From Escherichia coli (GTDB lineage: Bacteria > Pseudomonadota > Gammaproteobacteria > Enterobacterales > Enterobacteriaceae): a stretch of DNA of 64,000 bases. The position numbers were made by a program, and so were the translations under genes. Below, in pieces: positions 1 to 64,000 of the stretch (position 1 is the stretch's first letter; each line of letters begins with the position of its first letter). A model generated the notes under the pieces. That model did no database searches. It was not told the origin of the DNA and saw only the letters and a program-made list of their open reading frames with translations. The stretch lies in NCBI RefSeq assembly GCF_002854065.1, contig NZ_CP024147.1, one strand, 5' to 3'.

Positions 1-2403
<2,403 letters not shown>

Positions 2404-49986: not shown

Positions 49987-50376
49987 ATGAGACATTACAT
50001 GAAGTGGTTTGCGGCTATTGCTGTTGTGGGTGCTTTAGCAGGTTGCGCGCGTACTGCGCCAATTGATCAGGTTCACTCAACCGTCAGCGCTGGTCATACC
50101 CAGGAACAAGTGAAAAAAGCGATTCTGAAAGCTGGCGTTGAACGCAAATGGATTATGTCCGAAGCCGGACAAGGCATAATTAAAGCACGTCAACAGTCAC
50201 GCGATCATTCAGCGGAAATACGCATTAACTACACGGCATCCAGCTACGATATCAATTATGAAAATAGCCAGAACCTACAAGCGTCAGGCGGACAAATTCA
50301 TAAAAACTACAATCGCTGGGTCCGCAATCTCGACAAAGATATTCAACTGAATTTGTCAGCGGGCGCAGATTTATAA
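49987..50376 (+). CDS. small lipoprotein, first gene of the APE-type cluster
   Basis: 129-aa ORF MRHYMKWFAAIAVVGALAGC (signal peptide plus lipobox); alternative start 49999; lower GC than downstream genes. Confidence 0.7.
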   Translation: MRHYMKWFAAIAVVGALAGCARTAPIDQVHSTVSAGHTQEQVKKAILKAGVERKWIMSEAGQGIIKARQQSRDHSAEIRINYTASSYDINYENSQNLQASGGQIHKNYNRWVRNLDKDIQLNLSAGADL

Positions 50377-50435
50377 TTCTTCCTAAAGTCGGGCCGTTGC
50401 GGTCCGATAATAATTTAATTCCCTCTTAACAGGTT

Positions 50436-51503
50436 GTGCCCAACATGTACGAACAGGATTCTCTTAGCGCACTGGATGCGATTACCGAAGCTCAACGCAT
50501 TGCCTTTGCCCCTATGCTTTTTCAAACAGCACTCTGCCTACGTAATGCGGGTGTACTTTCATATCTGGATCGGCAAGGCAAACATGGCGCAACGCTGGCT
50601 GATATCACCGAACATAGCCATATCAACGAATATGCTGCCAGCGTTCTGTTAGATATGGGCTTAAGCGGGCGAATTATTACCTGTAAAGAGGGAATTTATT
50701 ACCTGGCGAAAATCGGTCATTACCTCCTGCATGACACTATGACTCGCGTGAATATGGATTTCACCCAGGATGTCTGTTACCAGGGGCTCTTCTTCCTCGC
50801 CGATTCACTCAATGAAGGAAAACCTTCCGGGTTAAAAGTATTTGGCGACTGGTCGACGATATATCCGGCACTTTCGCAATTACCAGACGCCGCTCGTGAA
50901 AGCTGGTTTGCGTTTGATCATTACTATTCAGATGGCGCATTTAACGCCGTACTGCCTTATGTATTCGCCAACAACCCCACAACATTGTACGATGTAGGCG
51001 GCAATACGGGTAAGTGGGCTTTGCGTTGCTGCAAATACAATGAAAACATCGCCGTGACGTTATTAGATCTGCCACAACAAATCGTACTAGCGAAAGAAAA
51101 TATCGCGAATGCAGGTTTTTCTGATCGCATAGATTTCCATGCGGTGGATATGCTAAGCGATGCCCCATTACCGGGCGAGGCTGATATCTGGTGGATGAGC
51201 CAATTTTTAGACTGTTTTTCACCCGAACAAATAATTAGCATACTCAGCAAAATTGCCAGCGTAATGAAGCCTGGCGCAAAAGTTTGCATCATGGAGTTGT
51301 TCTGGGATGCGCAGCGGTTTGAAGCAGCATCGTTTAGCCTGAACGCGTCCTCACTTTATTTTACCTGCATGGCAAACGGTAACAGCCGTTTCTATAGTGC
51401 AGAGAAATTTTACGACTATCTGAATAAAGCAGGATTCCAGGTAGCAGAGCGCCACGATAATTTAGGCGTTGGGCATACACTTTTGATATGCCAAAAGAAA
51501 TAA
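50436..51503 (+). CDS. apeB: SAM-dependent (O-)methyltransferase
   Basis: 355-aa ORF; Rossmann SAM motif LYDVGGNTGKWAL. Symbol inferred from conserved ape cluster order; verify. Confidence 0.7.
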   Translation: MPNMYEQDSLSALDAITEAQRIAFAPMLFQTALCLRNAGVLSYLDRQGKHGATLADITEHSHINEYAASVLLDMGLSGRIITCKEGIYYLAKIGHYLLHDTMTRVNMDFTQDVCYQGLFFLADSLNEGKPSGLKVFGDWSTIYPALSQLPDAARESWFAFDHYYSDGAFNAVLPYVFANNPTTLYDVGGNTGKWALRCCKYNENIAVTLLDLPQQIVLAKENIANAGFSDRIDFHAVDMLSDAPLPGEADIWWMSQFLDCFSPEQIISILSKIASVMKPGAKVCIMELFWDAQRFEAASFSLNASSLYFTCMANGNSRFYSAEKFYDYLNKAGFQVAERHDNLGVGHTLLICQKK

Positions 51504-51543
51504 TCGTCACTTAATAATTTTGGTTTACCGCGGGCGCGCGTTG

Positions 51544-52266
51544 ATGAAATTTACATTAAATATTACCGACTGGCAGGCACTGGCGCCTGGACTTAGCGAA
51601 GCGCAGCAATGGCAAGCATGGTCGCGCCAGCCGTGGGCGATTGACCCTGCCGCGCCGTTGGCAAAATTAAGTGAACTGCCAATGATGACCGCCCGCCGCC
51701 TCAGTTCAGGCAGCAAACTGGCTGTTGAATGCGGTCTGGCAATGCTACGCCGCCATCAGCCAGACGCCGTTTTGTATACCAGTCGTCATGGCGAACTGGA
51801 GCGCAATTACCGCATTGTTCATGCACTGGCAACCGAACAGGCGCTTTCTCCGACGGACTTCGCGCTCTCCGTACACAACTCTTCCGTGGGTAACCTGACC
51901 ATTGCGGCCAAACAGCCGATCGTTTCGTCATCGCTTTCGGCTGGTCGCGACACTTTCCAGCAAGGTTTGTGTGAAGTGCTTAGTCTGTTACAGGCGGGCT
52001 ACCAGCGCGTGTTGATGGTCGATTTTGATGGCTTTCTGCCTGAGTTCTATCATCCACAACTGCCCGCAGAAATGCCGACCTGGCCGTACGCCGTCGCGCT
52101 GGTGATTGAAGCTGGCGATGAGTGGCAATGTGGAACGCAGTCAGCCATTGCGGGTAATGAAACAACACTGCCGCAAAGCATGTTGTTTTTACAGCACTAT
52201 TTACAAAATGCGGACACATTTTCACTGCCTGGCGAGCGCGTACAGTGGCGCTGGAGCCGTGGATGA
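51544..52266 (+). CDS. apeC: short KS-like partner protein (chain-length-factor-like)
   Basis: ORF 51520..52266 (TTG); ATG at 51544 gives MKFTLNITDWQALAPG; about 240 aa, far shorter than a full KAS; ATGA overlap with the next gene. Confidence 0.6.
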   Translation: MKFTLNITDWQALAPGLSEAQQWQAWSRQPWAIDPAAPLAKLSELPMMTARRLSSGSKLAVECGLAMLRRHQPDAVLYTSRHGELERNYRIVHALATEQALSPTDFALSVHNSSVGNLTIAAKQPIVSSSLSAGRDTFQQGLCEVLSLLQAGYQRVLMVDFDGFLPEFYHPQLPAEMPTWPYAVALVIEAGDEWQCGTQSAIAGNETTLPQSMLFLQHYLQNADTFSLPGERVQWRWSRG

Positions 52267-53084
52267 GTAAGCTGCTGTCACGTCTGGAGTGGACCTGGCG
52301 ACTGGTCATGACCGGGTTATGTTTTGCCCTGTTTGGTCTCGGCGGCCTGCTGCTTTCTGTCGTGTGGTTTAACATATTGTTAGTTTTGGTGTGGGATACT
52401 TCCCGCCGCCGTCGTTTGGCGCGTCGCAGCATTGCCGCCAGTTTTCGCCTGTTTTTAACTGTCGCGAAAGGGCTTGGCGTGCTGGATTATCGTATTGATG
52501 GCGCTGAAATTTTACGTCAGGAACGCGGTTGCCTCGTCGTAGCCAATCATCCCACGCTGATCGATTACGTGCTGCTGGCGTCAGTCATGCCAGAAACTGA
52601 CTGCCTGGTGAAAAGCGCGCTGTTAAAAAATCCTTTTCTTGGCGGCGTCGTGCGGGCGGCAGATTATTTAATCAACAGCGAAGCTGAAACCCTGTTACCC
52701 CGCTGCCAACAGCGACTGGCACAGGGTGACACTATCCTGATTTTCCCCGAAGGCACGCGAACGAAGCCCGGTGAAAAAATGACGCTGCAGCGCGGGGCGG
52801 CGAATATTGCCGTGCGCTGTGCCAGCGATTTACGCATCGTGACGATCGGCTGTAGCGAGCATCTGCTGGATAAACAAAGTAAATGGTATGACGTTCCACC
52901 TGACCGGCCGTTTTTTACGGTTGCAGTCCATGGTCGGGTTGAAATCAATAAATTTTACGATGCAACTTCACAAGAACCGGCGCTGGCAGCAAGGCAGTTA
53001 AACCGGCATCTTTTGCTTCAATTACAACAAGGTTGTTTACCTCTCTCAGGAATAAATAATGCAAGCGCTTTATCTGGAAATTAA
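52263..53084 (+). CDS. lysophospholipid/glycerol-3-phosphate acyltransferase family protein
   Basis: ORF 52245..53084; HX4D motif NHPTLIDY and FPEGTRT motif; start chosen at the ATGA overlap (52263). Confidence 0.75.
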   Translation: MSKLLSRLEWTWRLVMTGLCFALFGLGGLLLSVVWFNILLVLVWDTSRRRRLARRSIAASFRLFLTVAKGLGVLDYRIDGAEILRQERGCLVVANHPTLIDYVLLASVMPETDCLVKSALLKNPFLGGVVRAADYLINSEAETLLPRCQQRLAQGDTILIFPEGTRTKPGEKMTLQRGAANIAVRCASDLRIVTIGCSEHLLDKQSKWYDVPPDRPFFTVAVHGRVEINKFYDATSQEPALAARQLNRHLLLQLQQGCLPLSGINNASALSGN

Positions 53085-53316
53085 AAACCTCATCATCAGC
53101 ACCCTCAATCTGGACGAGTTGACGCCTGATGATATCGATACCGACGCGCCGCTGTTTGGCGACGGTTTAGGGCTGGACTCTATCGATGCCCTGGAACTGG
53201 GACTGGCAGTAAAAAATGAGTACGGCATCGTGCTCTCTGCGGAAAGCGAAGAGATGCGTCAGCACTTTTTCTCCGTCGCCACTCTGGCCTCTTTCATTGC
53301 TGCGCAACGTGCCTGA
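53059..53316 (+). CDS. apeE: acyl carrier protein
   Basis: 85-aa acidic ORF with phosphopantetheine-site motif LGLDSIDALEL. Confidence 0.8.
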   Translation: MQALYLEIKNLIISTLNLDELTPDDIDTDAPLFGDGLGLDSIDALELGLAVKNEYGIVLSAESEEMRQHFFSVATLASFIAAQRA

Positions 53317-53327
53317 GGAAAGCCATC

Positions 53328-53579
53328 ATGACAGAACAACAAACCGTCTATCAGGAAGTCTCAGCCCTGCTGGTTAAGCTGTTTGAAATCGATCCGCAGG
53401 ACATCAAACCTGAAGCGCGCCTGTACGAAGATCTGGAACTGGACAGCATCGACGCCGTTGACATGATTGTGCACCTGCAAAAGAAAACCGGTAAGAAAAT
53501 CAAGCCGGAAGAGTTTAAAGCAGTGCGTACAGTCCAGGATGTCGTCGAGGCTGTAGAACGCCTGCTACAAGAAGCCTGA
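53328..53579 (+). CDS. apeF: acyl carrier protein
   Basis: 83-aa ORF with LELDSIDAVDM motif. Confidence 0.8.
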   Translation: MTEQQTVYQEVSALLVKLFEIDPQDIKPEARLYEDLELDSIDAVDMIVHLQKKTGKKIKPEEFKAVRTVQDVVEAVERLLQEA

Positions 53580-53583
53580 TCTG

Positions 53584-54165
53584 ATGTCGGGCATTCGCTC
53601 GCTACCGATGATTAAGCTGCTGACTGGATTATTGCTGCTCGCCTGGCCGTTTGTGATTTGGTTTGGCTTAGCGCATAACGGCCTGCACTGGCTGTTGCCG
53701 CTAATAGCGTTGCTGCTTTTGTTGCGCCTGCGCCAGACCCGTCGCCAGGCGGGGCCGCTCCAGGTCGTCACACAAATCGTCGCTGTCGTGGGCATCGCAT
53801 TATGTGTCGCCAGCGTTCTGTTGAAAACACACCAGCTACTGCTGTTTTACCCGGTAGTGGTTAACGCGGTCATGCTGGCGGTTTTTGGCGGTTCGCTGTG
53901 GTCGGCAATGCCGATAGTTGAGCGGCTGGCGCGTTTGCAGGAGCCAGATCTGCCGGAAAAGGGCATGCGCTATACCCGCCGCGTCACGCAAATCTGGTGC
54001 GGCTTTTTCATCATCAACGGTGGAATTGCCCTCTTTACCGCGCTTTATGCCGATATGTCGTTATGGACCGCCTGGAACGGCATGATTGCTTATTTGTTGA
54101 TGGGAACATTAATGGCTGGTGAATGGCTGGTGCGCCGTCAGGTGATGAAAAGAGATCGCGCATGA
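53584..54165 (+). CDS. integral membrane protein of unknown function
   Basis: 193-aa ORF with several hydrophobic segments (LLLAWPFVIWFGL, VVGIALCVASVLL, ...). Confidence 0.65.
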   Translation: MSGIRSLPMIKLLTGLLLLAWPFVIWFGLAHNGLHWLLPLIALLLLLRLRQTRRQAGPLQVVTQIVAVVGIALCVASVLLKTHQLLLFYPVVVNAVMLAVFGGSLWSAMPIVERLARLQEPDLPEKGMRYTRRVTQIWCGFFIINGGIALFTALYADMSLWTAWNGMIAYLLMGTLMAGEWLVRRQVMKRDRA

Positions 54166-55523
54166 AGCAGACCTTACCGCTTGCACGCTGGCTGACTGCG
54201 CCACGCTCTGATGACACACCCATTGCGTGGCTGGACGAAAGCTTCTGGACGCTGGGCGATTTGCGTCACGATGTCGCGCAACTTATCTGCCGCTTGCAGC
54301 AACAGCCGGGTGAACGCTGGGCGCTGTGCTTTGAGAACAGCTATCTGTTTATCGTTGCCCTGCTCGCCACGCTACACGCCGGAAAAACGCCGGTGCTTCC
54401 GGGGCATAACCGTGTTATCCAGCTTAACGAGCAACGTGAACTTTTTGATGGTGTGCTTAGCGACAGCGAACTTAACTGGCAAGGTTCATTGCTGTTGGTA
54501 GCAAGTTCCCCACAAATCGCGACACAATCCTTCACCTTTGCCGCTATAGCGCCAGAGGCTTTTATCGAGCTGTTTACCTCCGGTTCCACGGGACAGCCGA
54601 AACGGGTGATTAAACCTGTTCATTTGCTGGATCGTGAAGCAGAACTGCTGGCTGAACGATTAGGCGCACGTCTGGCGGGTTGTCGTGTCGTCGGTTCCGT
54701 ATTGCCGCAGCATTTGTACGGCCTGACTTTTCGCGTTTTCCTGCCCATGGCGTTGGGATTACCGCTGCACGCCGCCATGCTCTGGTATGTCGAACAGTTT
54801 GCCGCGTTGAGTCATCAGCATCGCTATATCTTCATCAGCAGCCCGGCATTTTTGAAGCGCCTGGATACCCAGCTTTCTCCGCCACCCGTTCAGGTGCTTC
54901 TCTCTGCTGGCGGTGAGCTGCCGTGGCAGGATGTACAACACACCGCAAGCTGGCTGCGCGTCTGGCCTGATGAAATCTACGGCAGCACGGAAACCGGTGT
55001 CATCGCCTGGCGTTACCGCGAACAAGAGCAACGCCGCTGGCTACCCTTCCCTGGTATGCAGTTCCAGGCCGAAGGTGATTCTTTTCGTCTCTTTTCACCG
55101 CTGATGGCGGAAGATAACGGCCTGTTACTCGACGATCTCTTGCAGTTTAGCCAGGACGGTCAGTTCCATCTGATGGGGCGTCGTGGGCGCATCGTTAAGA
55201 TTGAAGAAAAACGTATTTCACTCCAGGAAGTAGAACAACGTCTGCTGGCGCTGGACGGTATTCGCGAGGCGGCGGCAGTTCCCGTTACGCGCGGCGGGCG
55301 TCAGAGCATAGGCGTTTTGCTGGTGCTGGATGACGAAGCTCATCTGCAATGGCAGAACGGCGGCGGGCATAGCCAGGAAATGACCTGGCGGCGTTTACTG
55401 CGCCCGACGCTGGAGCCAGTTGCTATTCCGCGTTACTGGCGCGTTATTGATGAAATGCCAGTAAACAGTATGAACAAGCGTGTCTATGCGCAATTACAGG
55501 AGTTATTTCATGAAGCCCCATGA
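54162..55523 (+). CDS. apeH: AMP-dependent synthetase/ligase (acyl/aryl-activating enzyme)
   Basis: ORF 54123..55523; start at the ATGA overlap 54162 (MKQTLPLARW); AMP-binding motif TSGSTGQPKRV. Confidence 0.78.
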   Translation: MKQTLPLARWLTAPRSDDTPIAWLDESFWTLGDLRHDVAQLICRLQQQPGERWALCFENSYLFIVALLATLHAGKTPVLPGHNRVIQLNEQRELFDGVLSDSELNWQGSLLLVASSPQIATQSFTFAAIAPEAFIELFTSGSTGQPKRVIKPVHLLDREAELLAERLGARLAGCRVVGSVLPQHLYGLTFRVFLPMALGLPLHAAMLWYVEQFAALSHQHRYIFISSPAFLKRLDTQLSPPPVQVLLSAGGELPWQDVQHTASWLRVWPDEIYGSTETGVIAWRYREQEQRRWLPFPGMQFQAEGDSFRLFSPLMAEDNGLLLDDLLQFSQDGQFHLMGRRGRIVKIEEKRISLQEVEQRLLALDGIREAAAVPVTRGGRQSIGVLLVLDDEAHLQWQNGGGHSQEMTWRRLLRPTLEPVAIPRYWRVIDEMPVNSMNKRVYAQLQELFHEAP

Positions 55524-55863
55524 AATCGAGCGCCATCAGGCACAAACGAATCACCTTGAAATTGTTCTGCATCTCAGGGCGGATCTGTTCTGGTTTCGCG
55601 GTCATTTTGCCGTGCAACCATTACTCCCAGGAGTTGCGCAAATCGACTGGGCGATGAGCTACGCGCTCAATCTGCTCGCGCCTGGCTGGCGTTTTCACTC
55701 CATTCAGAACATAAAATTCCAGTCTCCGTTGCTGCCGGAAAACCGCGTCACGCTCGCGCTTAACTGGCAGGAAGAACGCCAGATTCTGAGCTTTAGCTAT
55801 CAGCGTCACGACGGTGACGCCCGCCACACCGCCAGTAGCGGGAAGATCCGCCTATGTCGGTAA
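55510..55863 (+). CDS. apeI: hotdog-fold (3R)-hydroxyacyl-ACP dehydratase-like protein
   Basis: ORF 55480..55863; FabA/FabZ-like motif GHFAVQPLLPGV; start 55510 overlaps the upstream gene. Confidence 0.7.
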   Translation: MKPHEIERHQAQTNHLEIVLHLRADLFWFRGHFAVQPLLPGVAQIDWAMSYALNLLAPGWRFHSIQNIKFQSPLLPENRVTLALNWQEERQILSFSYQRHDGDARHTASSGKIRLCR

Positions 55864-57530
55864 ACTTTTCTCCCTGCGTGTTGATTCCCTGCTATAACCA
55901 CGGCGCGATGATGCCGGGCGTGCTGGCGCGTCTTAAGCCATTTAATCTCCCCTGTATTGTGGTGGACGACGGCAGCGATGCCGCCACGCAACAGCAACTG
56001 GATAATCTGGTTAGCGAACAGCCTGGCGTGACCTTAATTCGCTTAGCAGAAAACGCAGGTAAAGGCGCGGCAGTGATGCGTGGCTTACAGGCAGCGGCAG
56101 ACGCAGGGTTCAGCCATGCGGTGCAGGTGGATGCTGACGGTCAACATGCGATTGAAGATATCCCCAAACTGCTGGCACTCGCTGAACGACACCCTGCGGC
56201 GCTGATCTCCGGCCAGCCAATTTACGATGACTCCATCCCCCGCTCACGGCTTTACGGGCGCTGGGTCACCCACGTCTGGGTATGGATCGAAACGCTCTCC
56301 CTGCAACTGAAAGACAGCATGTGCGGCTTTCGCGTTTATCCGGTTGCGCCAACGCTGCAACTGGCAAAACACGCCACCATCGGCAAGCGGATGGATTTCG
56401 ACACTGAAGTGATGGTGCGCCTCTACTGGCAGGGAAACACCAGCTATTTCGTGCCGACCCGCGTCACCTATCCACTGGACGGGCTTTCGCATTTTGATGC
56501 CCTGAAAGATAACGTCCGCATCTCGCTCATGCACACGCGTCTGTTTTTCGGCATGTTACCGCGTATTCCTTCACTGCTGATGCGCCGCTCTTCCAGCCAC
56601 TGGGCGCGGCAGAGTGAAGTGAAAGGATTATGGGGAATGCGCCTGATGCTGCTGGTCTGGCGTCTGCTGGGAAGAACGGCGTTTAGCGCGCTGCTTTACC
56701 CGGTGGTGGGCGTCTACTGGCTCACTGCTTCTCGTGCGCGCAAAGCGTCGCAAGACTGGCTCGCCCGTGTACGACAGCATCAACCACAGGCGGCAAAACT
56801 CAACAGCTATCAGCACTTTCTACGTTTCGGTAATGCCATGCTCGACAAAATCGCCAGTTGGCGCGGCGAGCTGCAACTGGGGCGCGATGTGCTGTTTGCG
56901 CCAGGCGCAGAAGCGGCACTTAACGTCAGCGATCCGCGCGGCAAATTGCTGCTGGCCTCGCATCTTGGCGATGTGGAAGTGTGCCGGGCGCTGGCAAAAA
57001 TTCAGGGCTACAAAACCATTAACGCGCTGGTGTTTAGCGAAAACGCCCAACGCTTTAAACAGATAATGCAGGAGATGGCCCCGCAGGCCGGCATCAACCT
57101 GATGCCGGTAACGGATATCGGCCCGGAAACCGCCATCCTGCTCAAAGAGAAGCTGGATAACGGCGAATGGGTGGCGATTGTCGGTGACCGCATCGCCGTC
57201 AACCCGCAACGCGGCGGCGACTGGCGCGTCTGCTGGAGTCCGTTTATGGGCCAGCCTGCGCCCTTCCCACAGGGGCCGTTTATTCTCGCGTCTATTTTGC
57301 GCTGCCCGGTGAATCTGATTTTCGCCCTGCGCCAGCACGGCAAGCTGCATATTCACTGCGAAACCTTTGCCGACCCGCTGCTGTTGCCGCGTGGCGAACG
57401 CCAACAGGCGCTGCAAAACGCTATCGACCACTACGCCGCGCGTCTGGAACATTACGCGCTCCAGTCGCCCCTCGACTGGTTTAATTTTTTCGATTTCTGG
57501 CAACTGCCGGAAATTCAGGACAAGGAGTAA
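55854..57530 (+). CDS. bifunctional GT2 glycosyltransferase / lipid-A-type acyltransferase-like protein
   Basis: 558 aa; N-terminus CVLIPCYNHG...VVDDGSDA...DADGQH (GT-A DxD); C-terminal half resembles HtrB/LpxL-type acyltransferases. Confidence 0.7.
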   Translation: MSVNFSPCVLIPCYNHGAMMPGVLARLKPFNLPCIVVDDGSDAATQQQLDNLVSEQPGVTLIRLAENAGKGAAVMRGLQAAADAGFSHAVQVDADGQHAIEDIPKLLALAERHPAALISGQPIYDDSIPRSRLYGRWVTHVWVWIETLSLQLKDSMCGFRVYPVAPTLQLAKHATIGKRMDFDTEVMVRLYWQGNTSYFVPTRVTYPLDGLSHFDALKDNVRISLMHTRLFFGMLPRIPSLLMRRSSSHWARQSEVKGLWGMRLMLLVWRLLGRTAFSALLYPVVGVYWLTASRARKASQDWLARVRQHQPQAAKLNSYQHFLRFGNAMLDKIASWRGELQLGRDVLFAPGAEAALNVSDPRGKLLLASHLGDVEVCRALAKIQGYKTINALVFSENAQRFKQIMQEMAPQAGINLMPVTDIGPETAILLKEKLDNGEWVAIVGDRIAVNPQRGGDWRVCWSPFMGQPAPFPQGPFILASILRCPVNLIFALRQHGKLHIHCETFADPLLLPRGERQQALQNAIDHYAARLEHYALQSPLDWFNFFDFWQLPEIQDKE

Positions 57531-57533
57531 AGG

Positions 57534-57956
57534 GTGCTTAACGATCCCCGATTTACCGCTGAAGTCGAGCTGACCATTCCCTTTCACGACGTCGATATGA
57601 TGGGCGTGGCCTGGCACGGTAACTATTTTCGCTACTTTGAAGTGGCCCGCGAGGCGCTGCTCAACCAGTTCAATTACGGCTATCGGCAGATGAAAGAGTC
57701 CGGTTATTTGTGGCCAGTGGTCGATGCGCGGGTGAAATATCGCCACGCCCTCACCTTTGAGCAACGCATCCGCGTGCGTGCGCATATCGAAGAGTTCGAA
57801 AACCGTCTGCGGATTGGCTATCAGATTTTCGATGCCGAAACGGGCAAACGCGCCACCACCGGATACACCATTCAGGTCGCGGTCGACGAGCAAAGTCGCG
57901 AACTGTGCTTTGTCAGCCCCGATATTCTGTTTGAACGCATGGGAGTCAAACCATGA
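57534..57956 (+). CDS. apeK: 4HBT/YbgC-type acyl thioesterase
   Basis: 140-aa ORF (GTG start); hotdog thioesterase pattern HDVDMMGVAWHGNYFRYFEVAR. Confidence 0.75.
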   Translation: MLNDPRFTAEVELTIPFHDVDMMGVAWHGNYFRYFEVAREALLNQFNYGYRQMKESGYLWPVVDARVKYRHALTFEQRIRVRAHIEEFENRLRIGYQIFDAETGKRATTGYTIQVAVDEQSRELCFVSPDILFERMGVKP

Positions 57957-58558
57957 AATTTTTACCGCTACTGGCGCTGCTGATTAGCCCGTTTGTGAGC
58001 GCCCTGACCCTGGACGATCTTCAGCAACGCTTTACCGAACAATCGGTGATCCGCGCCCATTTCGATCAAACCCGGACGATTAAAGATCTGCCGCAGCCGC
58101 TGCGATCTCAGGGCCAGATGTTGATCGCCCGCGACCAGGGGCTGTTGTGGGATCAAACCTCACCGTTCCCCATGCAACTATTACTGGACGATAAACGCAT
58201 GGTGCAGGTGATCAACGGTCAGCCGCCGCAAATCATCACGGCAGAAAACAACCCGCAGATGTTTCAGTTTAACCACCTGCTGCGCGCGCTGTTCCAGGCC
58301 GATCGCAAAGTGCTGGAACAAAACTTCCGCGTCGAATTTACCGACAAAGGCGAAGGCCGCTGGACGCTGCGCCTGACCCCAACCACCACGCCGCTGGATA
58401 AAATTTTCAACACCATCGATCTCGCCGGGCAAACCTATCTGGAGAGCATTCAACTTAATGATAAACAGGGCGATCGCACCGATATTGCTCTTACCCAACA
58501 TCAACTGACGCCAGCGCAACTGACCGATGACGAACGCCAACGTTTTGCCGCCCAGTAA
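57953..58558 (+). CDS. LolA-like outer-membrane lipoprotein carrier
   Basis: 201 aa, signal peptide MKFLPLLALLISPFVSA; LolA-family length and layout. Confidence 0.65.
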   Translation: MKFLPLLALLISPFVSALTLDDLQQRFTEQSVIRAHFDQTRTIKDLPQPLRSQGQMLIARDQGLLWDQTSPFPMQLLLDDKRMVQVINGQPPQIITAENNPQMFQFNHLLRALFQADRKVLEQNFRVEFTDKGEGRWTLRLTPTTTPLDKIFNTIDLAGQTYLESIQLNDKQGDRTDIALTQHQLTPAQLTDDERQRFAAQ

Positions 58559-60845
58559 ACGCCCCGCGCTGTTATGGGGGCTAGTCTGCCTGGTCATGGC
58601 GGCGGCGTTGCTGATCCTGCTGCCGCAATCACGGCTGAACAGTAGCGTGCTGGCTATGTTACCCAAACAGGCGATGGGCGATATTCCCCCAGCGCTGAAT
58701 GACGGCTTTATGCAGCGTCTGGACCGCCAACTGGTGTGGCTGGTCAGCCCCGGTAAAGAGGCTAATCCCAGGGTGGCTCAGGAGTGGCTGACGCTGCTGC
58801 AAAAATCCGCTGCGCTCGGCGACGTTAAAGGGCCAATGGATGCCGCCAGCCAGCAAGCGTGGGGCGCGTTTTTCTGGCAGCACCGCAACGGCCTGATTGA
58901 CCCCGACACCCGCGCCCGCCTGCAAAACGGCGGCGAAGCGCAGGCGCAGTGGATCCTCTCCCAGCTTTATTCTGCATTCTCCGGGGTAAGCGGCAAGGAG
59001 CTGCAAAACGATCCGCTGATGTTAATGCGCGGCTCGCAGCTGGCGATGGCAAAAAATGGCCAGCGTTTGCGGCTGATGGACGGCTGGCTGGTGACGCAGG
59101 ATCCCCAGGGCAACTACTGGTATCTGCTGCACGGCGAACTGGCGGGATCGTCGTTTGATATGCAGCAAACCCACCAGCTCATCACGACCCTGAATACGCT
59201 GGAAAAGGATCTGAAAACGCGTTACCCACAGGCGCAGTTGCTCTCGCGCGGCACGGTATTTTACAGCGATTACGCCAGTCAACAGGCGAAGCAGGATATC
59301 TCAACCCTGGGCGTGGCAACGCTGCTGGGGGTGATATTACTGATTGTGGCGGTGTTCCGCTCTTTGCGCCCATTGTTGCTTTGCGTGATTTCCATCGGCA
59401 TCGGCGCGCTGGCGGGAACGGTCGCCACTTTATTGATTTTCGGTGAATTACACCTGATGACGCTGGTGATGAGCATGAGCGTTATCGGCATTTCCGCTGA
59501 CTACACGCTCTATTATCTCACCGAGCGGATGGTGCACGGCAACGACGTTTCGCCGTGGCAAAGCCTGGCGAAAGTACGCAATGCCCTGCTGCTGGCGCTG
59601 CTCACCACCGTGGCGGCATATCTGATTATGATGCTCGCCCCCTTCCCCGGCATTCGCCAGATGGCGATTTTTGCCGCCGTCGGGTTGAGCGCCTCCTGTC
59701 TGACCGTCCTGTTCTGGCATCCGTGGCTGTGCCGTGGCCTGCCGGTGCGTCCGGTTCCGGCGATGGCGCTGATGCTGCGCTGGCTGGCAGCGTGGCGGCG
59801 CAATAAAAAACTGTCGCTGGGTCTGCCCGTCGCGCTGGCGCTGTTTTCGCTGGCGGGGATGTCAATGCTGCGCGTCGATGACGATATCTCGCAGTTACAG
59901 GCGCTGCCGCAGCATATTCTGGCGCAGGAGAAAGCCATTACCGCCCTGACCGGACAAAGCGTCGATCAAAAATGGTTTGTGGTTTACGGCGATTCGCCAC
60001 AGCAAACATTGCGGCGACTGGAGAAATATACCGCCTCACTTGAGTATGCGAAAAAAGAGGGGCTTATCAGCAACTACCGCACCATTCCGCTGAACTCCCT
60101 TGCGCGGCAGGAGGAAGATTTACAACTGCTGAAAACGGCGGCCCCGACAGTAACAAAAGCGCTGCAAAATGCCGGGCTGACGGCAGTGAACCCGGATCTC
60201 AACGCCATGCCAGTGAACGTTGATGAATGGCTGGCAAGCCCTGCCAGTGAAGGCTGGCGTCTGCTGTGGCTGACGCTGGAAAACGGCGAAAGCGGCGTAC
60301 TGGTGCCGGTTGAAGGGGTTAAAAGTAGCGCGTTGATGCAGGAAATCGCCACATATTACCCTTGCGGCATTGCCTGGGTTGATCGCAAAAGCACCTTTGA
60401 TGAGTTGTTCGCGCTTTACCGTTATGTCTTAACCGGCTTGTTGCTGGTGGCGCTGGCGGTGATTGCCTGCGGCGCAGTGGCCCGTCTCGGCTGGCGCAAA
60501 GGGCTTATCAGCCTTGTACCTTCGGTGCTTTCGCTGGGTTGTGGTCTGGCGGTGCTGGCGATGAGCGGGCAGGCGGTGAATCTCTTTTCGCTGCTGGCGC
60601 TGGTGCTGGTGCTTGGCATCGGCATCAACTACACGCTGTTTTTCAGTAATCCGCGCGGCACACCATTAACTTCGCTACTGGCGATCACGCTGGCAATGCT
60701 CACCACCTTGCTGACGCTGGGAATGCTGATATTCAGCGCCACCCAGGCCATCAGCAGTTTTGGCATTGTGCTGGTGAGCGGTATTTTCACCGCCTTCCTG
60801 CTTTCGCCGCTGGCGATGCCCGATAAAAAGAGAACAAAAAAATGA
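58527..60845 (+). CDS. MMPL/RND-superfamily exporter
   Basis: 772-aa ORF with two blocks of TM helices separated by large soluble domains. Confidence 0.75.
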   Translation: MTNANVLPPSKRPALLWGLVCLVMAAALLILLPQSRLNSSVLAMLPKQAMGDIPPALNDGFMQRLDRQLVWLVSPGKEANPRVAQEWLTLLQKSAALGDVKGPMDAASQQAWGAFFWQHRNGLIDPDTRARLQNGGEAQAQWILSQLYSAFSGVSGKELQNDPLMLMRGSQLAMAKNGQRLRLMDGWLVTQDPQGNYWYLLHGELAGSSFDMQQTHQLITTLNTLEKDLKTRYPQAQLLSRGTVFYSDYASQQAKQDISTLGVATLLGVILLIVAVFRSLRPLLLCVISIGIGALAGTVATLLIFGELHLMTLVMSMSVIGISADYTLYYLTERMVHGNDVSPWQSLAKVRNALLLALLTTVAAYLIMMLAPFPGIRQMAIFAAVGLSASCLTVLFWHPWLCRGLPVRPVPAMALMLRWLAAWRRNKKLSLGLPVALALFSLAGMSMLRVDDDISQLQALPQHILAQEKAITALTGQSVDQKWFVVYGDSPQQTLRRLEKYTASLEYAKKEGLISNYRTIPLNSLARQEEDLQLLKTAAPTVTKALQNAGLTAVNPDLNAMPVNVDEWLASPASEGWRLLWLTLENGESGVLVPVEGVKSSALMQEIATYYPCGIAWVDRKSTFDELFALYRYVLTGLLLVALAVIACGAVARLGWRKGLISLVPSVLSLGCGLAVLAMSGQAVNLFSLLALVLVLGIGINYTLFFSNPRGTPLTSLLAITLAMLTTLLTLGMLIFSATQAISSFGIVLVSGIFTAFLLSPLAMPDKKRTKK

Positions 60846-61426
60846 TCAAATCCACATTCTGGCGAGCGTTCGCCCTGACCGCTACGCTTATCCTCACCGG
60901 CTGTAGCCACTCGCAACCAGAACAGGAAGGCCGCCCGCAGGCGTGGCTGCAACCTGGCACGCGCATCACGCTGCCGGCACCAGGGATTTCACCCGCAGTC
61001 AATTCGCAGCAACTGTTGACCGGCAGCTTCAACGGCAAAACCCAGTCGCTGTTAGTGATGCTTAACGCCGACGATCAGAAAATCACCCTTGCCGGGCTGT
61101 CGTCGGTCGGCATTCGCCTGTTTCTGGTGACCTACGATGCGCAAGGGCTACGCGCCGAGCAATCCATCGTCGTCCCACAGTTACCGCCCGCAAGTCAGGT
61201 ACTGGCTGACGTGATGCTCAGCCACTGGCCGATTAGCGCCTGGCAACCGCAACTTCCCGCAGGATGGACACTTCGCGACAACGGTGACAAACGCGAGCTG
61301 CGTAACGCCAGCGGCAAACTGGTCACGGAAATCACCTATCTGAATCGCAAGGGCAAACGCGTGCCAATCAGCATTGAGCAGCATGTCTTTAAATACCACA
61401 TCACCATTCAATACTTAGGTGACTGA
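60842..61426 (+). CDS. lipoprotein (DUF3261-like)
   Basis: 194 aa, MIKSTFWRAFALTATLILTGC lipobox. Confidence 0.65.
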   Translation: MIKSTFWRAFALTATLILTGCSHSQPEQEGRPQAWLQPGTRITLPAPGISPAVNSQQLLTGSFNGKTQSLLVMLNADDQKITLAGLSSVGIRLFLVTYDAQGLRAEQSIVVPQLPPASQVLADVMLSHWPISAWQPQLPAGWTLRDNGDKRELRNASGKLVTEITYLNRKGKRVPISIEQHVFKYHITIQYLGD

Positions 61427-62597
61427 TATGATTTATATTTCCGCCGTCGGCATGATCAACGCCCTGGGAAATAACCTTGACGAAATCGCAACCAACCTGA
61501 CTCGCGGTGTTGCTCCCGGCATGCGCCCGCGCGCAGGCTGGTTGCAGGGGCATCCGCAGGCGGTCCTGGCTGGCGTGGATGGCGAGCTTCCGCTTATCCC
61601 GGAAAAATTCGCTGCGCACCGCTCGCGCAACAATCAGATCCTGCTGGCGGCGCTGGCGCAGATCCAGCCGCAGGTTGATGACGCTATCGCGAAATATGGT
61701 CGCGAGCGCATCGCGATTGTACTTGGCACCAGCACCTCCGGCCTGCATGAAGGCGACACGCACGTTAACCTGCGCACCCACGGGCAGCCGAGCACCACAT
61801 GGCACTACGCGCAACAGGAACTCGGCGATCCGTCGCGTTTTCTCAGCCACTGGCTGGCGCTCGACGGCCCGGCCTATACCCTTTCAACCGCCTGCTCTTC
61901 CAGCGCCAGAGCGATAATCAGCGGGCGCAGGCTTATCGAAGCGGGGCTGGTCGATGCCGCCATTGTGGGTGGCGCAGACACCCTGAGCCGGATGCCGATT
62001 AACGGTTTTCACAGCCTCGAATCGCTGTCGCCAACCTTATGTCAGCCGTTTGGTCGTGACCGCGCAGGTATCACCATTGGTGAAGGGGCGGGGCTAATGC
62101 TGCTGACCCGGGAACCGCAGCCCATCGCGTTGCTGGGCGTTGGTGAATCGAGCGACGCTTACCATATTTCGGCCCCGCATCCGCAGGGCGAAGGGGCGAT
62201 CCGCGCCATTAATCAGGCACTGACCGATGCGCAGCTTACGCCAGATGACGTCGGCTATATCAACCTGCACGGCACCGCCACGCAACTCAACGACCAGATT
62301 GAATCGATGGTGCTTAACGCCCTGTTTGGCGAACGCGTACCGTGCAGCTCCACCAAACATTTGACCGGCCACACGCTGGGCGCGGCGGGCATTACCGAAG
62401 CAGCAATCAGTATGTTGATCTTACAGCGTGATTTACCGCTGCCCGCCCAAGATTTCAGCCTGTCGCCACGCGATCCCACGCTGCCACCCTGCGGCATTAT
62501 CGAAAAACCGCAGCCGCTGGCTCGTCCGGTGATCCTGTCCAATTCCTTCGCCTTTGGCGGCAATAACGCCAGCATTCTGCTCGGGAGGGTTTCGTGA
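61419..62597 (+). CDS. apeO: beta-ketoacyl-ACP synthase (KAS I/II-like)
   Basis: 392 aa; active-site Cys TACSSS, His motifs HGTATQLND and GHTLGAAG. Confidence 0.85.
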   Translation: MTDMIYISAVGMINALGNNLDEIATNLTRGVAPGMRPRAGWLQGHPQAVLAGVDGELPLIPEKFAAHRSRNNQILLAALAQIQPQVDDAIAKYGRERIAIVLGTSTSGLHEGDTHVNLRTHGQPSTTWHYAQQELGDPSRFLSHWLALDGPAYTLSTACSSSARAIISGRRLIEAGLVDAAIVGGADTLSRMPINGFHSLESLSPTLCQPFGRDRAGITIGEGAGLMLLTREPQPIALLGVGESSDAYHISAPHPQGEGAIRAINQALTDAQLTPDDVGYINLHGTATQLNDQIESMVLNALFGERVPCSSTKHLTGHTLGAAGITEAAISMLILQRDLPLPAQDFSLSPRDPTLPPCGIIEKPQPLARPVILSNSFAFGGNNASILLGRVS

Positions 62598-63058
62598 GCC
62601 ACTATTTATCCCCCGGCGCTTATCTGCCCCACGACGCGCCCATGTTACTGCTGGAAGACGTGGTGAGCGTCAGCGATGACAGCGCGGTGTGCCGCGTGAC
62701 GGTTTCGCCCAGTGGCGTACTGGCACCGTTTCTCGACCCGGACGGCAATCTCCCCGGCTGGTTTGCCCTTGAACTGATGGCGCAAACCGTCGGCGTCTGG
62801 TCTGGCTGGCATCGCCACCAGCAGGGCAAAAACAGTATTGAGTTAGGGATGATACTGGGCGCGCGTGAATTGCTTTGCGCCGCTGGCATTCTGCCCGCAG
62901 GCCAGACGCTGACCATTACCGTCAAACTGCTGATGCAGGACGATCGCTTCGGCAGTTTTGAGTGCAGCATCAACGACGGCGAGGCGACGGGCCGCATTAA
63001 CACCTTCCAGCCGACCGCGGAAGAACTTACCACCCTGTTTCAACAAGGAGCGTCCTGA
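62594..63058 (+). CDS. apeP: hotdog-fold dehydratase
   Basis: 154-aa ORF; 4-nt overlap with KS, 1-nt overlap with KR. Confidence 0.7.
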   Translation: MSHYLSPGAYLPHDAPMLLLEDVVSVSDDSAVCRVTVSPSGVLAPFLDPDGNLPGWFALELMAQTVGVWSGWHRHQQGKNSIELGMILGARELLCAAGILPAGQTLTITVKLLMQDDRFGSFECSINDGEATGRINTFQPTAEELTTLFQQGAS

Positions 63059-63789
63059 TGAGTCGTTCAGTTCTGGTTACTGGTGCCAGCAAAGGCATTG
63101 GTCGCGCCATCGCCTGCCAACTGGCGGCAGACGGCTTTAACATTGGCGTTCACTATCACCGTGACGCCACAGGCGCTCAGGAAACGCTGAATGCCATTGT
63201 CGCCAACGGGGGTAACGGGCGTTTGCTCAGTTTCGACGTCGCAAACCGCGAACAGTGTCGGGAAGTGCTGGAGCATGAGATCGCGCAACACGGTGCCTGG
63301 TACGGCGTGGTCAGTAACGCCGGGATCGCCCGCGATGCCGCTTTTCCGGCTTTAAGCGATGACGACTGGGATGCGGTGATCCACACCAACCTCGACAGTT
63401 TCTACAACGTCATTCAGCCGTGCATTATGCCAATGATCGGCGCGCGCCAGGGTGGGCGCATCATCACGCTGTCCTCGGTTTCCGGCGTAATGGGCAATCG
63501 CGGCCAGGTGAATTACAGCGCAGCCAAAGCCGGAATTATCGGCGCAACTAAAGCGCTGGCTATCGAACTCGCGAAGCGCAAAATCACCGTCAACTGCATC
63601 GCGCCGGGGCTTATTGATACCGGGATGATCGAAATGGAAGAGAGCGCTCTGAAAGAGGCAATGTCGATGATCCCCATGAAACGTATGGGCCAGGCGGAAG
63701 AAGTTGCCGGGCTTGCCAGTTATTTAATGTCTGATATTGCGGGTTACGTCACCCGCCAGGTTATTTCCATCAACGGAGGGATGTTATGA
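63058..63789 (+). CDS. apeQ: 3-oxoacyl-ACP reductase (SDR, FabG-like)
   Basis: 243 aa; TGASKGIGRAIA NAD(P)-binding and YSAAKAG catalytic motifs. Confidence 0.88.
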   Translation: MSRSVLVTGASKGIGRAIACQLAADGFNIGVHYHRDATGAQETLNAIVANGGNGRLLSFDVANREQCREVLEHEIAQHGAWYGVVSNAGIARDAAFPALSDDDWDAVIHTNLDSFYNVIQPCIMPMIGARQGGRIITLSSVSGVMGNRGQVNYSAAKAGIIGATKALAIELAKRKITVNCIAPGLIDTGMIEMEESALKEAMSMIPMKRMGQAEEVAGLASYLMSDIAGYVTRQVISINGGML

Positions 63790-64000
63790 CACGTCGCGTA
63801 GTGATTACAGGAATGGGCGGCGTGACTGCCTTTGGTGAAAACTGGCAGGACGTTTCTGCACGCTTACTGGCGTATGAAAATGCGGTGCGCAAAATGCCGG
63901 AGTGGCAGGTCTACGATGGCCTGCACACCCTGCTTGGCGCGCCTGTTGATGATTTCACGCTACCGGAGCACTATACCCGCAAGCGTATCCGTGCGATGGG
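63786..64000 (+). CDS. apeR: beta-ketoacyl-ACP synthase (partial, N-terminal 71 codons; continues beyond window)
   Basis: ATG at 63786 (ATGA overlap with KR); MTRRVVITGMGGVTAFGENWQD (KAS N-terminus). Confidence 0.75.
   Translation, partial: MTRRVVITGMGGVTAFGENWQDVSARLLAYENAVRKMPEWQVYDGLHTLLGAPVDDFTLPEHYTRKRIRAM

Follow-up and report, generated by a model that had tools for sequence, protein, structure and literature searches.

A divergent apeH allele, probably the initiation enzyme of the APE pathway, in the O157-type cluster adjoining acpT of Escherichia coli

Introduction

According to published work, ApeH of Xenorhabdus doucetiae adenylates 4-hydroxybenzoate (4-HBA) and then loads it on an ACP without a CoA thioester (PMC8253772); the ape cluster of this organism holds one apeB, and mono- and dimethyl products are made. 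The ApeH of Acinetobacter baumannii, described as a "benzoyl-ACP synthetase," loads p-hydroxybenzoate, and in vitro p-coumarate too, with ApeE as the preferred carrier and a direct ApeE-ApeH interaction seen by NMR (PMC12624758). XanA2 of the Xanthomonas xanthomonadin cluster is reported to be an ATP-dependent 3-hydroxybenzoate (3-HBA):ACP ligase that starts an aryl-polyene pigment (Cao et al., 2018; PMC6859482). In Escherichia coli, the APE_Ec product of the CFT073 cluster (c1204-c1186, where c1197 is ApeH) has been characterized as a 4-hydroxy-3-methylphenyl hexaene (head group source: bioRxiv 10.1101/2020.12.19.423268).

Here we consider a 64,000-nucleotide stretch of E. coli contig NZ_CP024147.1 (the window), for which the original prediction proposed an adenylate-forming enzyme that loads an aryl acid starter onto an ACP. 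The gene is apeH and, with a probability of roughly 0.85, its product initiates the type II PKS-like pathway by which E. coli makes aryl polyene (APE), a yellow membrane pigment.

Results

A Complete APE Cluster between yhhT and acpT

E. coli chromosomes with an 18-gene APE cluster flanked by yhhT and acpT match the window at 100% identity, and the cluster in the window is the known O157-type APE cluster adjoining acpT. All 18 genes are in canonical order (ApeE/ApeF carriers, KS/CLF, KR, two DH, and the ApeJ-N export/attachment genes), running from MTase, CLF and LPLAT through ApeE, ApeF, ApeG, ApeH, ApeI and ApeJ to ApeR and then acpT; the order is the same as in CFT073, and the domain content of the neighbors (Pfam, NCBIfam) fits an APE cluster. 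The yhhT-acpT cluster is commoner than the CFT073 cluster (566 vs. 259 of 5426 complete genomes). Its chromosomal site differs from that in CFT073, an island adjoining garD and hemagglutinin pseudogenes, and from that in strain YSP8-1, a tRNA-Phe island with an integrase.

The apeH frame (Table 1) carries the RefSeq label "AMP-binding protein" (WP_000815061.1, from an E. coli chromosome 100% identical to the window). An alternative in-frame ATG lies upstream at 54123, but the column of Met1 (54162) does not vary across 90 aligned homologs. The enzyme had been placed between the ACPs and the dehydratase and described as coupled by an ATGA overlap. The dehydratase gene apeI does follow and an ATGA does mark the apeH start, but the gene immediately upstream, and the partner in the overlap (apeH ATG 54162-54164 over apeG TGA 54163-54165), is apeG rather than an ACP gene, both ACP genes lying upstream of apeG in the local order ACP-ACP-membrane protein-ligase-dehydratase. 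At the 3' junction, the apeI ATG at 55510 is in frame with the open reading frame 55480..55863 and the Pfam ApeI-like match starts at residue 1; with this start the apeH/apeI overlap is 14 nt, and the "ATGA" at 55520-55523 is out of the apeI frame. Overlaps of 4 nt occur at five more junctions of the operon (C/D, K/L, M/N, O/P, and Q/R in RefSeq coordinates); such coupling characterizes the operon as a whole and is not specific to the ligase.

Table 1. Positions of apeH, its motifs and its neighbors in the window.
Feature	Coordinates	Strand	Description
apeB	50445..51503	+	SAM-dependent methyltransferase, FlxJ-family-like, aryl head-group tailoring; Pfam Methyltransf_2
apeE	53059..53316	+	85-aa carrier protein; PP-binding domain; NF006617 at 90.8 bits
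apeF	53328..53579	+	83-aa second ACP
apeG	53584..54165	+	193-aa polytopic helical membrane protein, COG4648; ATGA partner of apeH
Putative recombination block	53950..55795	+	Divergent from CFT073-type cluster; apeG 3' end, all apeH, most of apeI
apeH	54162..55523	+	453 aa, stop-free translation; RefSeq CDS with identical coordinates
ATGA overlap	54162..54165	+	apeH start over apeG stop
A3/P-loop motif	54576..54608	+	TSGSTGQPKRV, aa 139-149 of ApeH
A4 motif, His184	54711..54713	+	Aligned with CBAL His207, a residue of the pocket and gate
A5 motif	54978..54992	+	YGSTE, aa 273-277 of ApeH
A8 motif	55176..55223	+	GRRGRIVKIEEKRISL, aa 339-354; Arg340 = CBAL Arg400
A10, Lys439	55476..55478	+	Catalytic lysine of the adenylation half-reaction; aligns with CBAL Lys492
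apeI	55510..55863	+	117-aa ApeI-family dehydratase; Pfam ApeI-like E = 7.4e-40

ApeH Is a Divergent ANL Enzyme

The claim of an adenylate-forming enzyme with a TSGSTGQPKRV motif holds in full: ApeH is an ANL adenylate-forming enzyme by profile, core motifs and predicted two-domain fold. PF00501 (AMP-binding) matches far beyond chance, with 50.5 bits (cut-off 29.9, E = 1.8e-13), and covers only aa 137-289, which marks ApeH as a divergent member. The AlphaFold model (pLDDT 94.9, pTM 0.92) has a large N-terminal and a small C-terminal domain, and with it Foldseek returned 640 PDB matches at E ≤ 1e-3, the top ones all ANL enzymes at E about 1e-24 and TM-scores of 0.76-0.81, including the benzoate-CoA ligases 4eat, 4zjz and 4rlf and EntE-EntB (3rg2). 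A sequence search of the PDB gave weak partial matches only, with E of at least 1e-6, and found no solved ApeH, while a profile search reached 4-chlorobenzoate:CoA ligase (CBAL) and benzoate-CoA ligases.

CBAL (1T5D/3CW9) and the benzoate-CoA ligases (4EAT, 2V7B) share the two-domain fold, and their A3, A4-His, A5, A7-Asp, A8-Arg and A10-Lys positions align with those of ApeH. Beyond the correspondences in Table 1, T139, S142 and K147 align with CBAL T161, T164 and K169, YGSTE with T307/E308, and the A7 Asp, D325, with D385. These enzymes are at most 20% identical to ApeH, however, and their acceptor is CoA; ApeH is also about 50 residues shorter than CBAL, lacking 22 residues ahead of the P-loop and 29 from A5 to A7. 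Within its own family (1196 cluster representatives at E ≤ 1e-30), S140, G141, H184, G274, E277, R340 and K439 are invariant across 90 aligned homologs, His occupies position 184 in 81/81 sequences, and all 50 positions conserved at 90% or more among 79 other orthologs have the consensus residue in the window ApeH. The hinge residue is Gly342, in a column where 68 of 81 sequences have Asp and the other 13 have Gly. With a dN/dS of 0.08-0.21 within the window-type allele, apeH is under purifying selection.

Every NCBIfam match to ApeH fell below its cut-off, including every CoA-ligase equivalog. The best was the PYP-type 4-coumarate-CoA ligase (TIGR02372, 86.5 bits vs. 334.7); the benzoate-CoA ligase family (TIGR02262) reached 34.6 bits vs. 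375.25, through the C-terminal domain only, and the fatty-acid ACP/CoA ligase models 23-33 bits vs. cut-offs of 476-886 (Aas, NF005959: 23.5 vs. 886).

EntE, DhbE and the mycobacterial p-hydroxybenzoyl-AMP ligase FadD22 convert an aryl acid to an aryl-AMP and then to a carrier-protein thioester without CoA; they are functional analogs of ApeH from different subfamilies, to which no NCBIfam match above cut-off assigns ApeH.

A conventional aryl-CoA ligase, whose CoA thioester product would need a separate acyltransferase to bring the aryl group to the ACP, could be read from the nearest solved folds being CoA ligases, from the RefSeq label "acyl-CoA synthetase" on some copies and from the thioesterase (ApeK) and acyltransferases encoded in the cluster. 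We nevertheless regard it as extremely improbable: apeH is always the second gene after the ACP pair, the equivalog cut-offs are failed throughout, ApeE and ApeH interact directly (PMC12624758), and the X. doucetiae work describes ACP loading that bypasses a CoA thioester (PMC8253772). Very unlikely, too, is that ApeH is, or also is, a fatty-acyl-ACP ligase providing ApeF with the starter for the second, conjugated fatty-acyl chain found in APE lipids. These lipids do have a second polyene-like conjugated acyl chain; ApeF is its proposed assembly site, and the loading of its starter is unexplained. Weak NCBIfam similarities to fatty-acid ligases exist as well; these lie far under the cut-offs, however, the PDB fold matches include several enzymes that activate aryl or short acyl groups, and the characterized ApeH enzymes load 4-HBA with a strong preference for ApeE over ApeF.

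The Predicted Aryl Pocket and the Starter

The pocket was mapped from a CBAL sequence identical to 1T5D, whose aryl-pocket residues we take to be F184/H207/F249/A280/I303/G305/M310/N311. Two alignment methods, at an identity of ≤20%, place these at L162/H184/I225/A249/I272/G274/G279/V280 of ApeH, so that I272, G274, G279 and V280, which flank A5, correspond to I303, G305, M310 and N311, with Gly279 and Val280 standing in place of Met310 and Asn311. The predicted pocket strings are LHIAIGGV in the window, MHVAIGGI in CFT073 and WHIAIGG[V/I] in Xenorhabdus, that is, L/M, I/V and V/I exchanges only from CFT073, and 7/8 positions the same in Xenorhabdus; position 162 is highly variable across the family (L, M, W, T, V, Q, I).

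It had been suggested that an alignment to characterized aryl-acid adenylating enzymes would resolve specificity, and that pocket and methyltransferase together would reveal the head group of this strain; the latter holds in part only. Run against CBAL, the alignment maps eight putative pocket positions at which the window ApeH, the CFT073 allele and Xenorhabdus are identical or differ conservatively. The prediction is therefore 4-HBA as starter for the window ApeH and the CFT073 allele alike, without strain discrimination. ApeB (94% aa identity to CFT073 ApeB; 473 bits against NF053543, under the cut-off of 560) does not complete the prediction: because X. doucetiae has a single apeB in its ape cluster and yields both mono- and dimethyl products, the number of ring methylations is not readable from the ApeB sequence.

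4-HBA is readily supplied in E. coli, from chorismate via UbiC, and we know of no route to 3-HBA or 4-coumarate in this species. The diverged allele might nonetheless activate another aromatic starter (3-HBA, benzoate or 4-coumarate) and so produce a head group unlike that of CFT073. ApeH is far less similar to its CFT073 counterpart than the rest of the cluster is (65.8% vs. an otherwise 95-100% identity), the related XanA2 reportedly uses 3-HBA, p-coumarate is accepted in vitro by the A. baumannii enzyme (PMC12624758), and among the sub-threshold NCBIfam models one for 4-coumarate-CoA ligase scores best. Given the conservative pocket exchanges, the retention of all family-conserved positions and the ready supply of 4-HBA, we consider a changed starter unlikely, and prefer 4-HBA.

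Among the compared systems, CFT073 ApeH has the same position in an 18-gene cluster, the same gene order, all ANL motifs, the hinge Gly, 452 vs. 453 aa and a predicted pocket conservatively identical to that of the window ApeH. The likeness to Xenorhabdus was established via X. mauleonii and X. ehlersii rather than X. doucetiae (45-46% full-length identity, E = 6e-120 and 7e-127); their apeH genes are syntenic with the window in the same E-F-G-H-I order, and differ in having Trp instead of Leu at position 162 and Asp instead of Gly at the hinge. A. baumannii ApeH is likened by its reported reaction (ApeE over ApeF), not by sequence, and differs in its in vitro use of p-coumarate. XanA2 prefers 3-HBA, whereas 4-HBA is predicted for the window ApeH. 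A Stenotrophomonas rhizophila homolog (Xanthomonas family, XanA2 orthology not implied) is 34% identical to the window ApeH, and is a 580-aa ApeH-ApeI fusion with an "S...GG" pocket variant, AHVSVGGG.

A Divergent Block Spanning apeG, apeH and apeI

Over a block of about 1.85 kb, nucleotide identity to CFT073 drops to 66.5%, with flanks at 95-97%. ApeH itself is 65.8% identical to CFT073 ApeH (WP_001077063.1) over its full length (67% nt), while the flanking genes are 95-100% identical; it is thus about 34% different from the only E. coli ApeH with a known cluster product. From this comparison, E. coli APE clusters appear to have exchanged the apeG(3')-apeH-apeI block. Orthologs from Citrobacter and Enterobacter are slightly more similar to the window-type block, and the GC content of that block (55.0% vs. 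48.2%) is also in better agreement with its own flanks; for the CFT073-type allele, "Enterobacteriaceae bacterium ESL0689" has a relative at 87%. These observations point, although not decisively, to the CFT073-type rather than the window-type block as the import.

Possible Association of ApeG, ApeH and ApeI

In 79 related loci surveyed across Proteobacteria, Fibrobacter and Treponema, ApeH has ApeG as its neighbor in 75 and ApeI in 78. Gene fusions are present in 17 of them (13 H-I, 3 G-H-I, 1 G-H), with ApeG fused to ApeH in other phyla and ApeI-ApeH fusions in many taxa, and the E-F-G-H-I order is kept in the 15 related loci tabulated. One of the G-H-I fusions, from Fibrobacter, has 767 aa. 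The near-universal adjacency and the fusions suggest a membrane-tethered initiation module, for which the translational coupling and the block exchange provide further support, the exchanged E. coli block being exactly the apeG-apeH-apeI region (~66% identity in clusters otherwise 95-100% identical). Going by gene order and fusions, ApeH is probably active at the inner membrane, physically associated with ApeG and ApeI. The fuller proposal, that the three form one physically associated, membrane-anchored initiation module in which ApeG tethers or assists the ligase with ApeI alongside, and which is exchanged as a ~1.85-kb cassette, is tentative, and we would lean slightly against it at present. 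The AlphaFold model of ApeG is all-helical and has no fold match in the PDB (best E = 1.2); Pfam and NCBIfam gave no family for ApeG either, and its published "pyrophosphatase" label is neither backed nor contradicted by these results.

Discussion

That ApeH loads an aryl acid starter onto an ACP, as originally proposed, is supported by the position of apeH in a complete APE cluster and by the literature on ApeH and XanA2. By orthology with the characterized ApeH enzymes, the substrate would be 4-HBA and the route independent of CoA, and ApeE, whose role as starter ACP is known from the literature, is the predicted acceptor. In the proposed reaction, ApeH would bind ATP and 4-HBA and form 4-hydroxybenzoyl-AMP by means of the P-loop and Lys439; rotation of the domains about the A8 hinge would then pass the aryl group directly, with no CoA intermediate, to the phosphopantetheine thiol of holo-ApeE, which the adjacent PPTase AcpT would have activated. 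The aryl-ApeE would be elongated by ApeR with ApeO:ApeC, ApeQ and ApeI:ApeP, and the ring methylated by ApeB.

The function of ApeH is already known, and the finding, which re-identifies a known enzyme in a known cluster, is ordinary and adds little in itself. The ApeG, ApeH and ApeI set of the yhhT-acpT cluster is roughly 66-81% identical to that of CFT073, and because the sets differ, results from CFT073 are not transferable residue by residue to the yhhT-acpT cluster; inhibitor or antibody work on ApeH should take in both alleles. The adjacency and fusion of ApeG, ApeH and ApeI point to another, testable role for ApeG in place of the published conjecture that it powers export as a "transport energiser."

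Gene Organization of apeH

The 18-gene aryl polyene (APE) operon, apeA-apeR, lies between yhhT and acpT-nikA and carries apeH as its eighth gene. Its gene order is that of the APE_Ec cluster of E. coli CFT073 (c1204-c1186), where ApeH is c1197 (CFT073 record checked). The cluster (window 49987-64000 plus flanks, locus L001) adjoins acpT, the cognate PPTase gene. The apeH ORF shares its coordinates with a RefSeq CDS annotated as "AMP-binding protein" (WP_000815061.1), and the original observation of an adenylate-forming enzyme gene with the TSGSTGQPKRV motif is confirmed. Several complete E. coli chromosomes are 100% identical to the window sequence.

Features of the apeH region and operon (window coordinates)
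Feature	Coordinates	Strand	Description
apeH ORF	54162-55523	+	Uninterrupted, 453 residues by translation
P-loop TSGSTGQPKRV	54576-54608	+	Residues 139-149
A8 hinge residue Gly342	55185-55187	+	Asp in CBAL (D402)
Divergent block 1	49999-50651		About 66% identity to CFT073/Nissle-type cluster; apeA lipoprotein gene and first ~200 nt of apeB methyltransferase gene
Divergent block 2	about 53950-55795		66.5% DNA identity to CFT073/Nissle-type cluster; apeG 3' end, whole apeH, most of apeI
Operon genes 1-4			Lipoprotein; methyltransferase; chain-length factor; LPLAT acyltransferase
Operon genes 5-8			ACP; ACP; COG4648 membrane protein; ligase
Operon genes 9-12			ApeI dehydratase; GT2/acyltransferase; thioesterase; LolA-like
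Operon genes 13-18			MMPL transporter; DUF3261; KS; ApeP dehydratase; FabG2 reductase; second KS
Fusion loci			L056, L063, L068, L075, L058-L062, L069, L071, L073, L077-L082
Fusion proteins			P0133, P0142, P0166, P0222

The ligase gene had been placed between the ACP genes and the dehydratase gene and described as coupled by an ATGA overlap. The upstream overlap and the downstream apeI are as described, but the ATGA, formed by the apeH start codon and the TGA of ORF 53584-54165, is shared not with an ACP gene but with apeG, which encodes a 193-aa COG4648 membrane protein and is itself preceded by the two ACP genes. We place the apeI start at ATG 55510, preceded by AGGAG at 55499-55503 and overlapping apeH by 14 nt, because the ApeI-like domain hit in Pfam covers the protein from residue 1 onward. 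A second ATGA, at the apeH stop (55520-55523), could be mistaken for a start/stop overlap, yet it lies outside the apeI reading frame. Five further operon junctions have 4-nt overlaps in the RefSeq coordinates.

Family, Fold and Predicted Aryl Starter

ApeH scores 50.5 bits against Pfam AMP-binding (cut-off 29.9), and since the match is limited to residues 137-289 it is a divergent member of that family. No NCBIfam equivalog was reached, the top model being a PYP-type 4-coumarate-CoA ligase (86.5 vs. 334.7 bits). Relative to 4-chlorobenzoate:CoA ligase (CBAL), ApeH is compact: it is 22 residues shorter ahead of the P-loop and 29 residues shorter from motif A5 to motif A7, and the canonical A6/"GWxxTGD" segment is absent, which accounts for the weak and partial Pfam match. 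The A8 hinge residue is Asp in 68 of 81 ApeH sequences; the 13 with Gly are those of the window, CFT073 and close Enterobacteriaceae. Residues S140, G141, H184, G187, G274, E277, R340 and K439 are invariant (n = 90 homologs), and the AlphaFold model built from this 90-homolog alignment is confident (pLDDT 94.9, pTM 0.92). Its closest solved structures (Foldseek, PDB) are ANL enzymes, namely McbA, benzoate-CoA ligases, MatB, MenE and EntE-EntB, each with E about 1e-24 and identity ≤20%; sequence and profile searches found no ApeH structure in the PDB. Score, invariant residues, model and fold matches together bear out the assignment as an adenylate-forming enzyme.

The function of ApeH has already been described, and the enzyme belongs to a known, biochemically characterised family. 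ApeH of X. doucetiae adenylates 4-hydroxybenzoate (4-HBA) and charges an ACP without a CoA thioester, ApeE being the starter ACP of choice (PMC8253772); ApeE/ApeF homologues of O157:H7 are activated by AcpT (PMC8253772; De Lay and Cronan reference). The A. baumannii enzyme behaves likewise and also accepts p-coumarate in vitro (PMC12624758), and in xanthomonadin synthesis XanA2 is a 3-hydroxybenzoate:ACP ligase (PMC6859482). These activities and the cluster position of apeH support the proposal that an aryl acid starter is loaded onto an ACP.

A pocket alignment, suggested as a check alongside the original prediction, was made against CBAL (sequence checked against PDB 1T5D) with 81 ApeH sequences in two ways, which agreed. 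The eight CBAL residues that we take to form the 4-chlorobenzoate pocket, F184, H207, F249, A280, I303, G305, M310 and N311, map to L162, H184, I225, A249, I272, G274, G279 and V280 of the window ApeH, respectively. The predicted pocket is LHIAIGGV in the window, MHVAIGGI in CFT073 and WHIAIGG[V/I] in Xenorhabdus; a second subtype, xH[I/V]S[I/V]GGG, occurs in Vibrio, Aeromonas, Betaproteobacteria and Stenotrophomonas. Conservation across 79 other orthologs reaches ≥90% at 50 positions, and both E. coli alleles carry the consensus at every one of them (50/50); their 154 differences fall at variable sites, and dN/dS within the window-type allele is 0.08-0.21. Given the pocket alignment, the kept positions and dN/dS, we conclude that both alleles are functional, with 4-HBA most likely their common starter. 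Between strains of one allele type, dS reaches 0.15 (window vs. WP8-S17-ESBL-12; loci L084/L085 compared), which is high relative to typical E. coli core genes.

Pocket and methyltransferase had been expected to reveal the head group. This is borne out only in part: with 4-HBA as the likely starter and an ApeB 94% identical to that of CFT073, the 4-hydroxy-3-methylphenyl unit of CFT073 (bioRxiv 10.1101/2020.12.19.423268) is also predicted here; the degree of methylation is not readable from sequence.

Allelic Replacement Between Two Cluster Types

DNA matches to apeH occur in 786 of 5426 complete E. coli genomes, at full length with 95-100% identity in 566; in the others the match is confined to the final ~115 nt. 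Genomes with the short match, among them CFT073 and derivatives of Nissle 1917, harbour another type of cluster elsewhere on the chromosome; the ApeH of this second type (WP_001077063.1) is found at full length in 259 of the 5426. As there are up to two places per genome, and 566 plus 259 stands against about 822 matching genomes, a few genomes appear to carry both versions.

Per gene, the two types share 92-100% DNA identity (apeK 100%), with the exceptions of apeA (64%), apeG (83%), apeI (72.5%) and apeH (67% nt, 65.8% aa). A sliding comparison located two divergent blocks, the first ending sharply at about 50651. Block 2 is flanked by sequence of 95-97% identity, has a sharp right-hand boundary at about 55795 and contains a near-identical patch at 55431-55513; it is, on this comparison, an allelic cassette replacement. 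At least one of the two versions of the block is an import, because the apeH alleles, 66% identical to each other, are 74 and 72% identical to Citrobacter youngae, whereas in the flanking genes the E. coli types are closer to each other than to C. youngae. The GC content of the window-type block (55.0 vs. 48.2%), which is nearer to that of its flanks, and an 87% relative of the CFT073-type protein in "Enterobacteriaceae bacterium ESL0689" provide weak evidence that the CFT073 block is the foreign one. At 57331-57930 and 59181-59580, which take in all of apeK, the two types are 100% identical at the nucleotide level; as they occupy different chromosomal sites, this implies recent exchange.

A Possible ApeG-ApeH-ApeI Module

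A genome scan recovered 79 related loci in Gamma- and Betaproteobacteria, Fibrobacter and Treponema, with ApeG directly upstream of ApeH in 75 and ApeI directly downstream in 78. Fusions comprise ApeH-ApeI (13; Paraburkholderia, Stenotrophomonas, Pseudomonas, Methylobacter and others), ApeG-ApeH-ApeI (3; Fibrobacter, Treponema) and ApeG-ApeH (1; Treponema); representatives at 50% identity show the same types plus a 1185-aa ApeH-ApeI-ApeJ protein. Across species (L005-L083 vs. window 49999-63789) ApeH is usually the least conserved cluster protein, and ApeQ and ApeR the most; against C. youngae, ApeH is 74% identical and the other proteins 77-94%.

ApeG has been proposed to be a "COG4648 pyrophosphatase" energising export (bioRxiv 10.1101/2020.12.19.423268). 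Its predicted structure (pLDDT 79.6) is that of a membrane protein made up of helices only; the best fold match in the PDB was not significant (E = 1.2), Pfam and NCBIfam assigned it to no family, and these searches leave the published label unsupported. The pattern of fusion and coupling points instead to a role beside the ligase, which ApeG may anchor or assist at the inner membrane. With the observation on apeH confirmed and its interpretation supported, the allelic cassette and the possible ApeG-ApeH-ApeI module, by-products of this check, are modest and merit a note.
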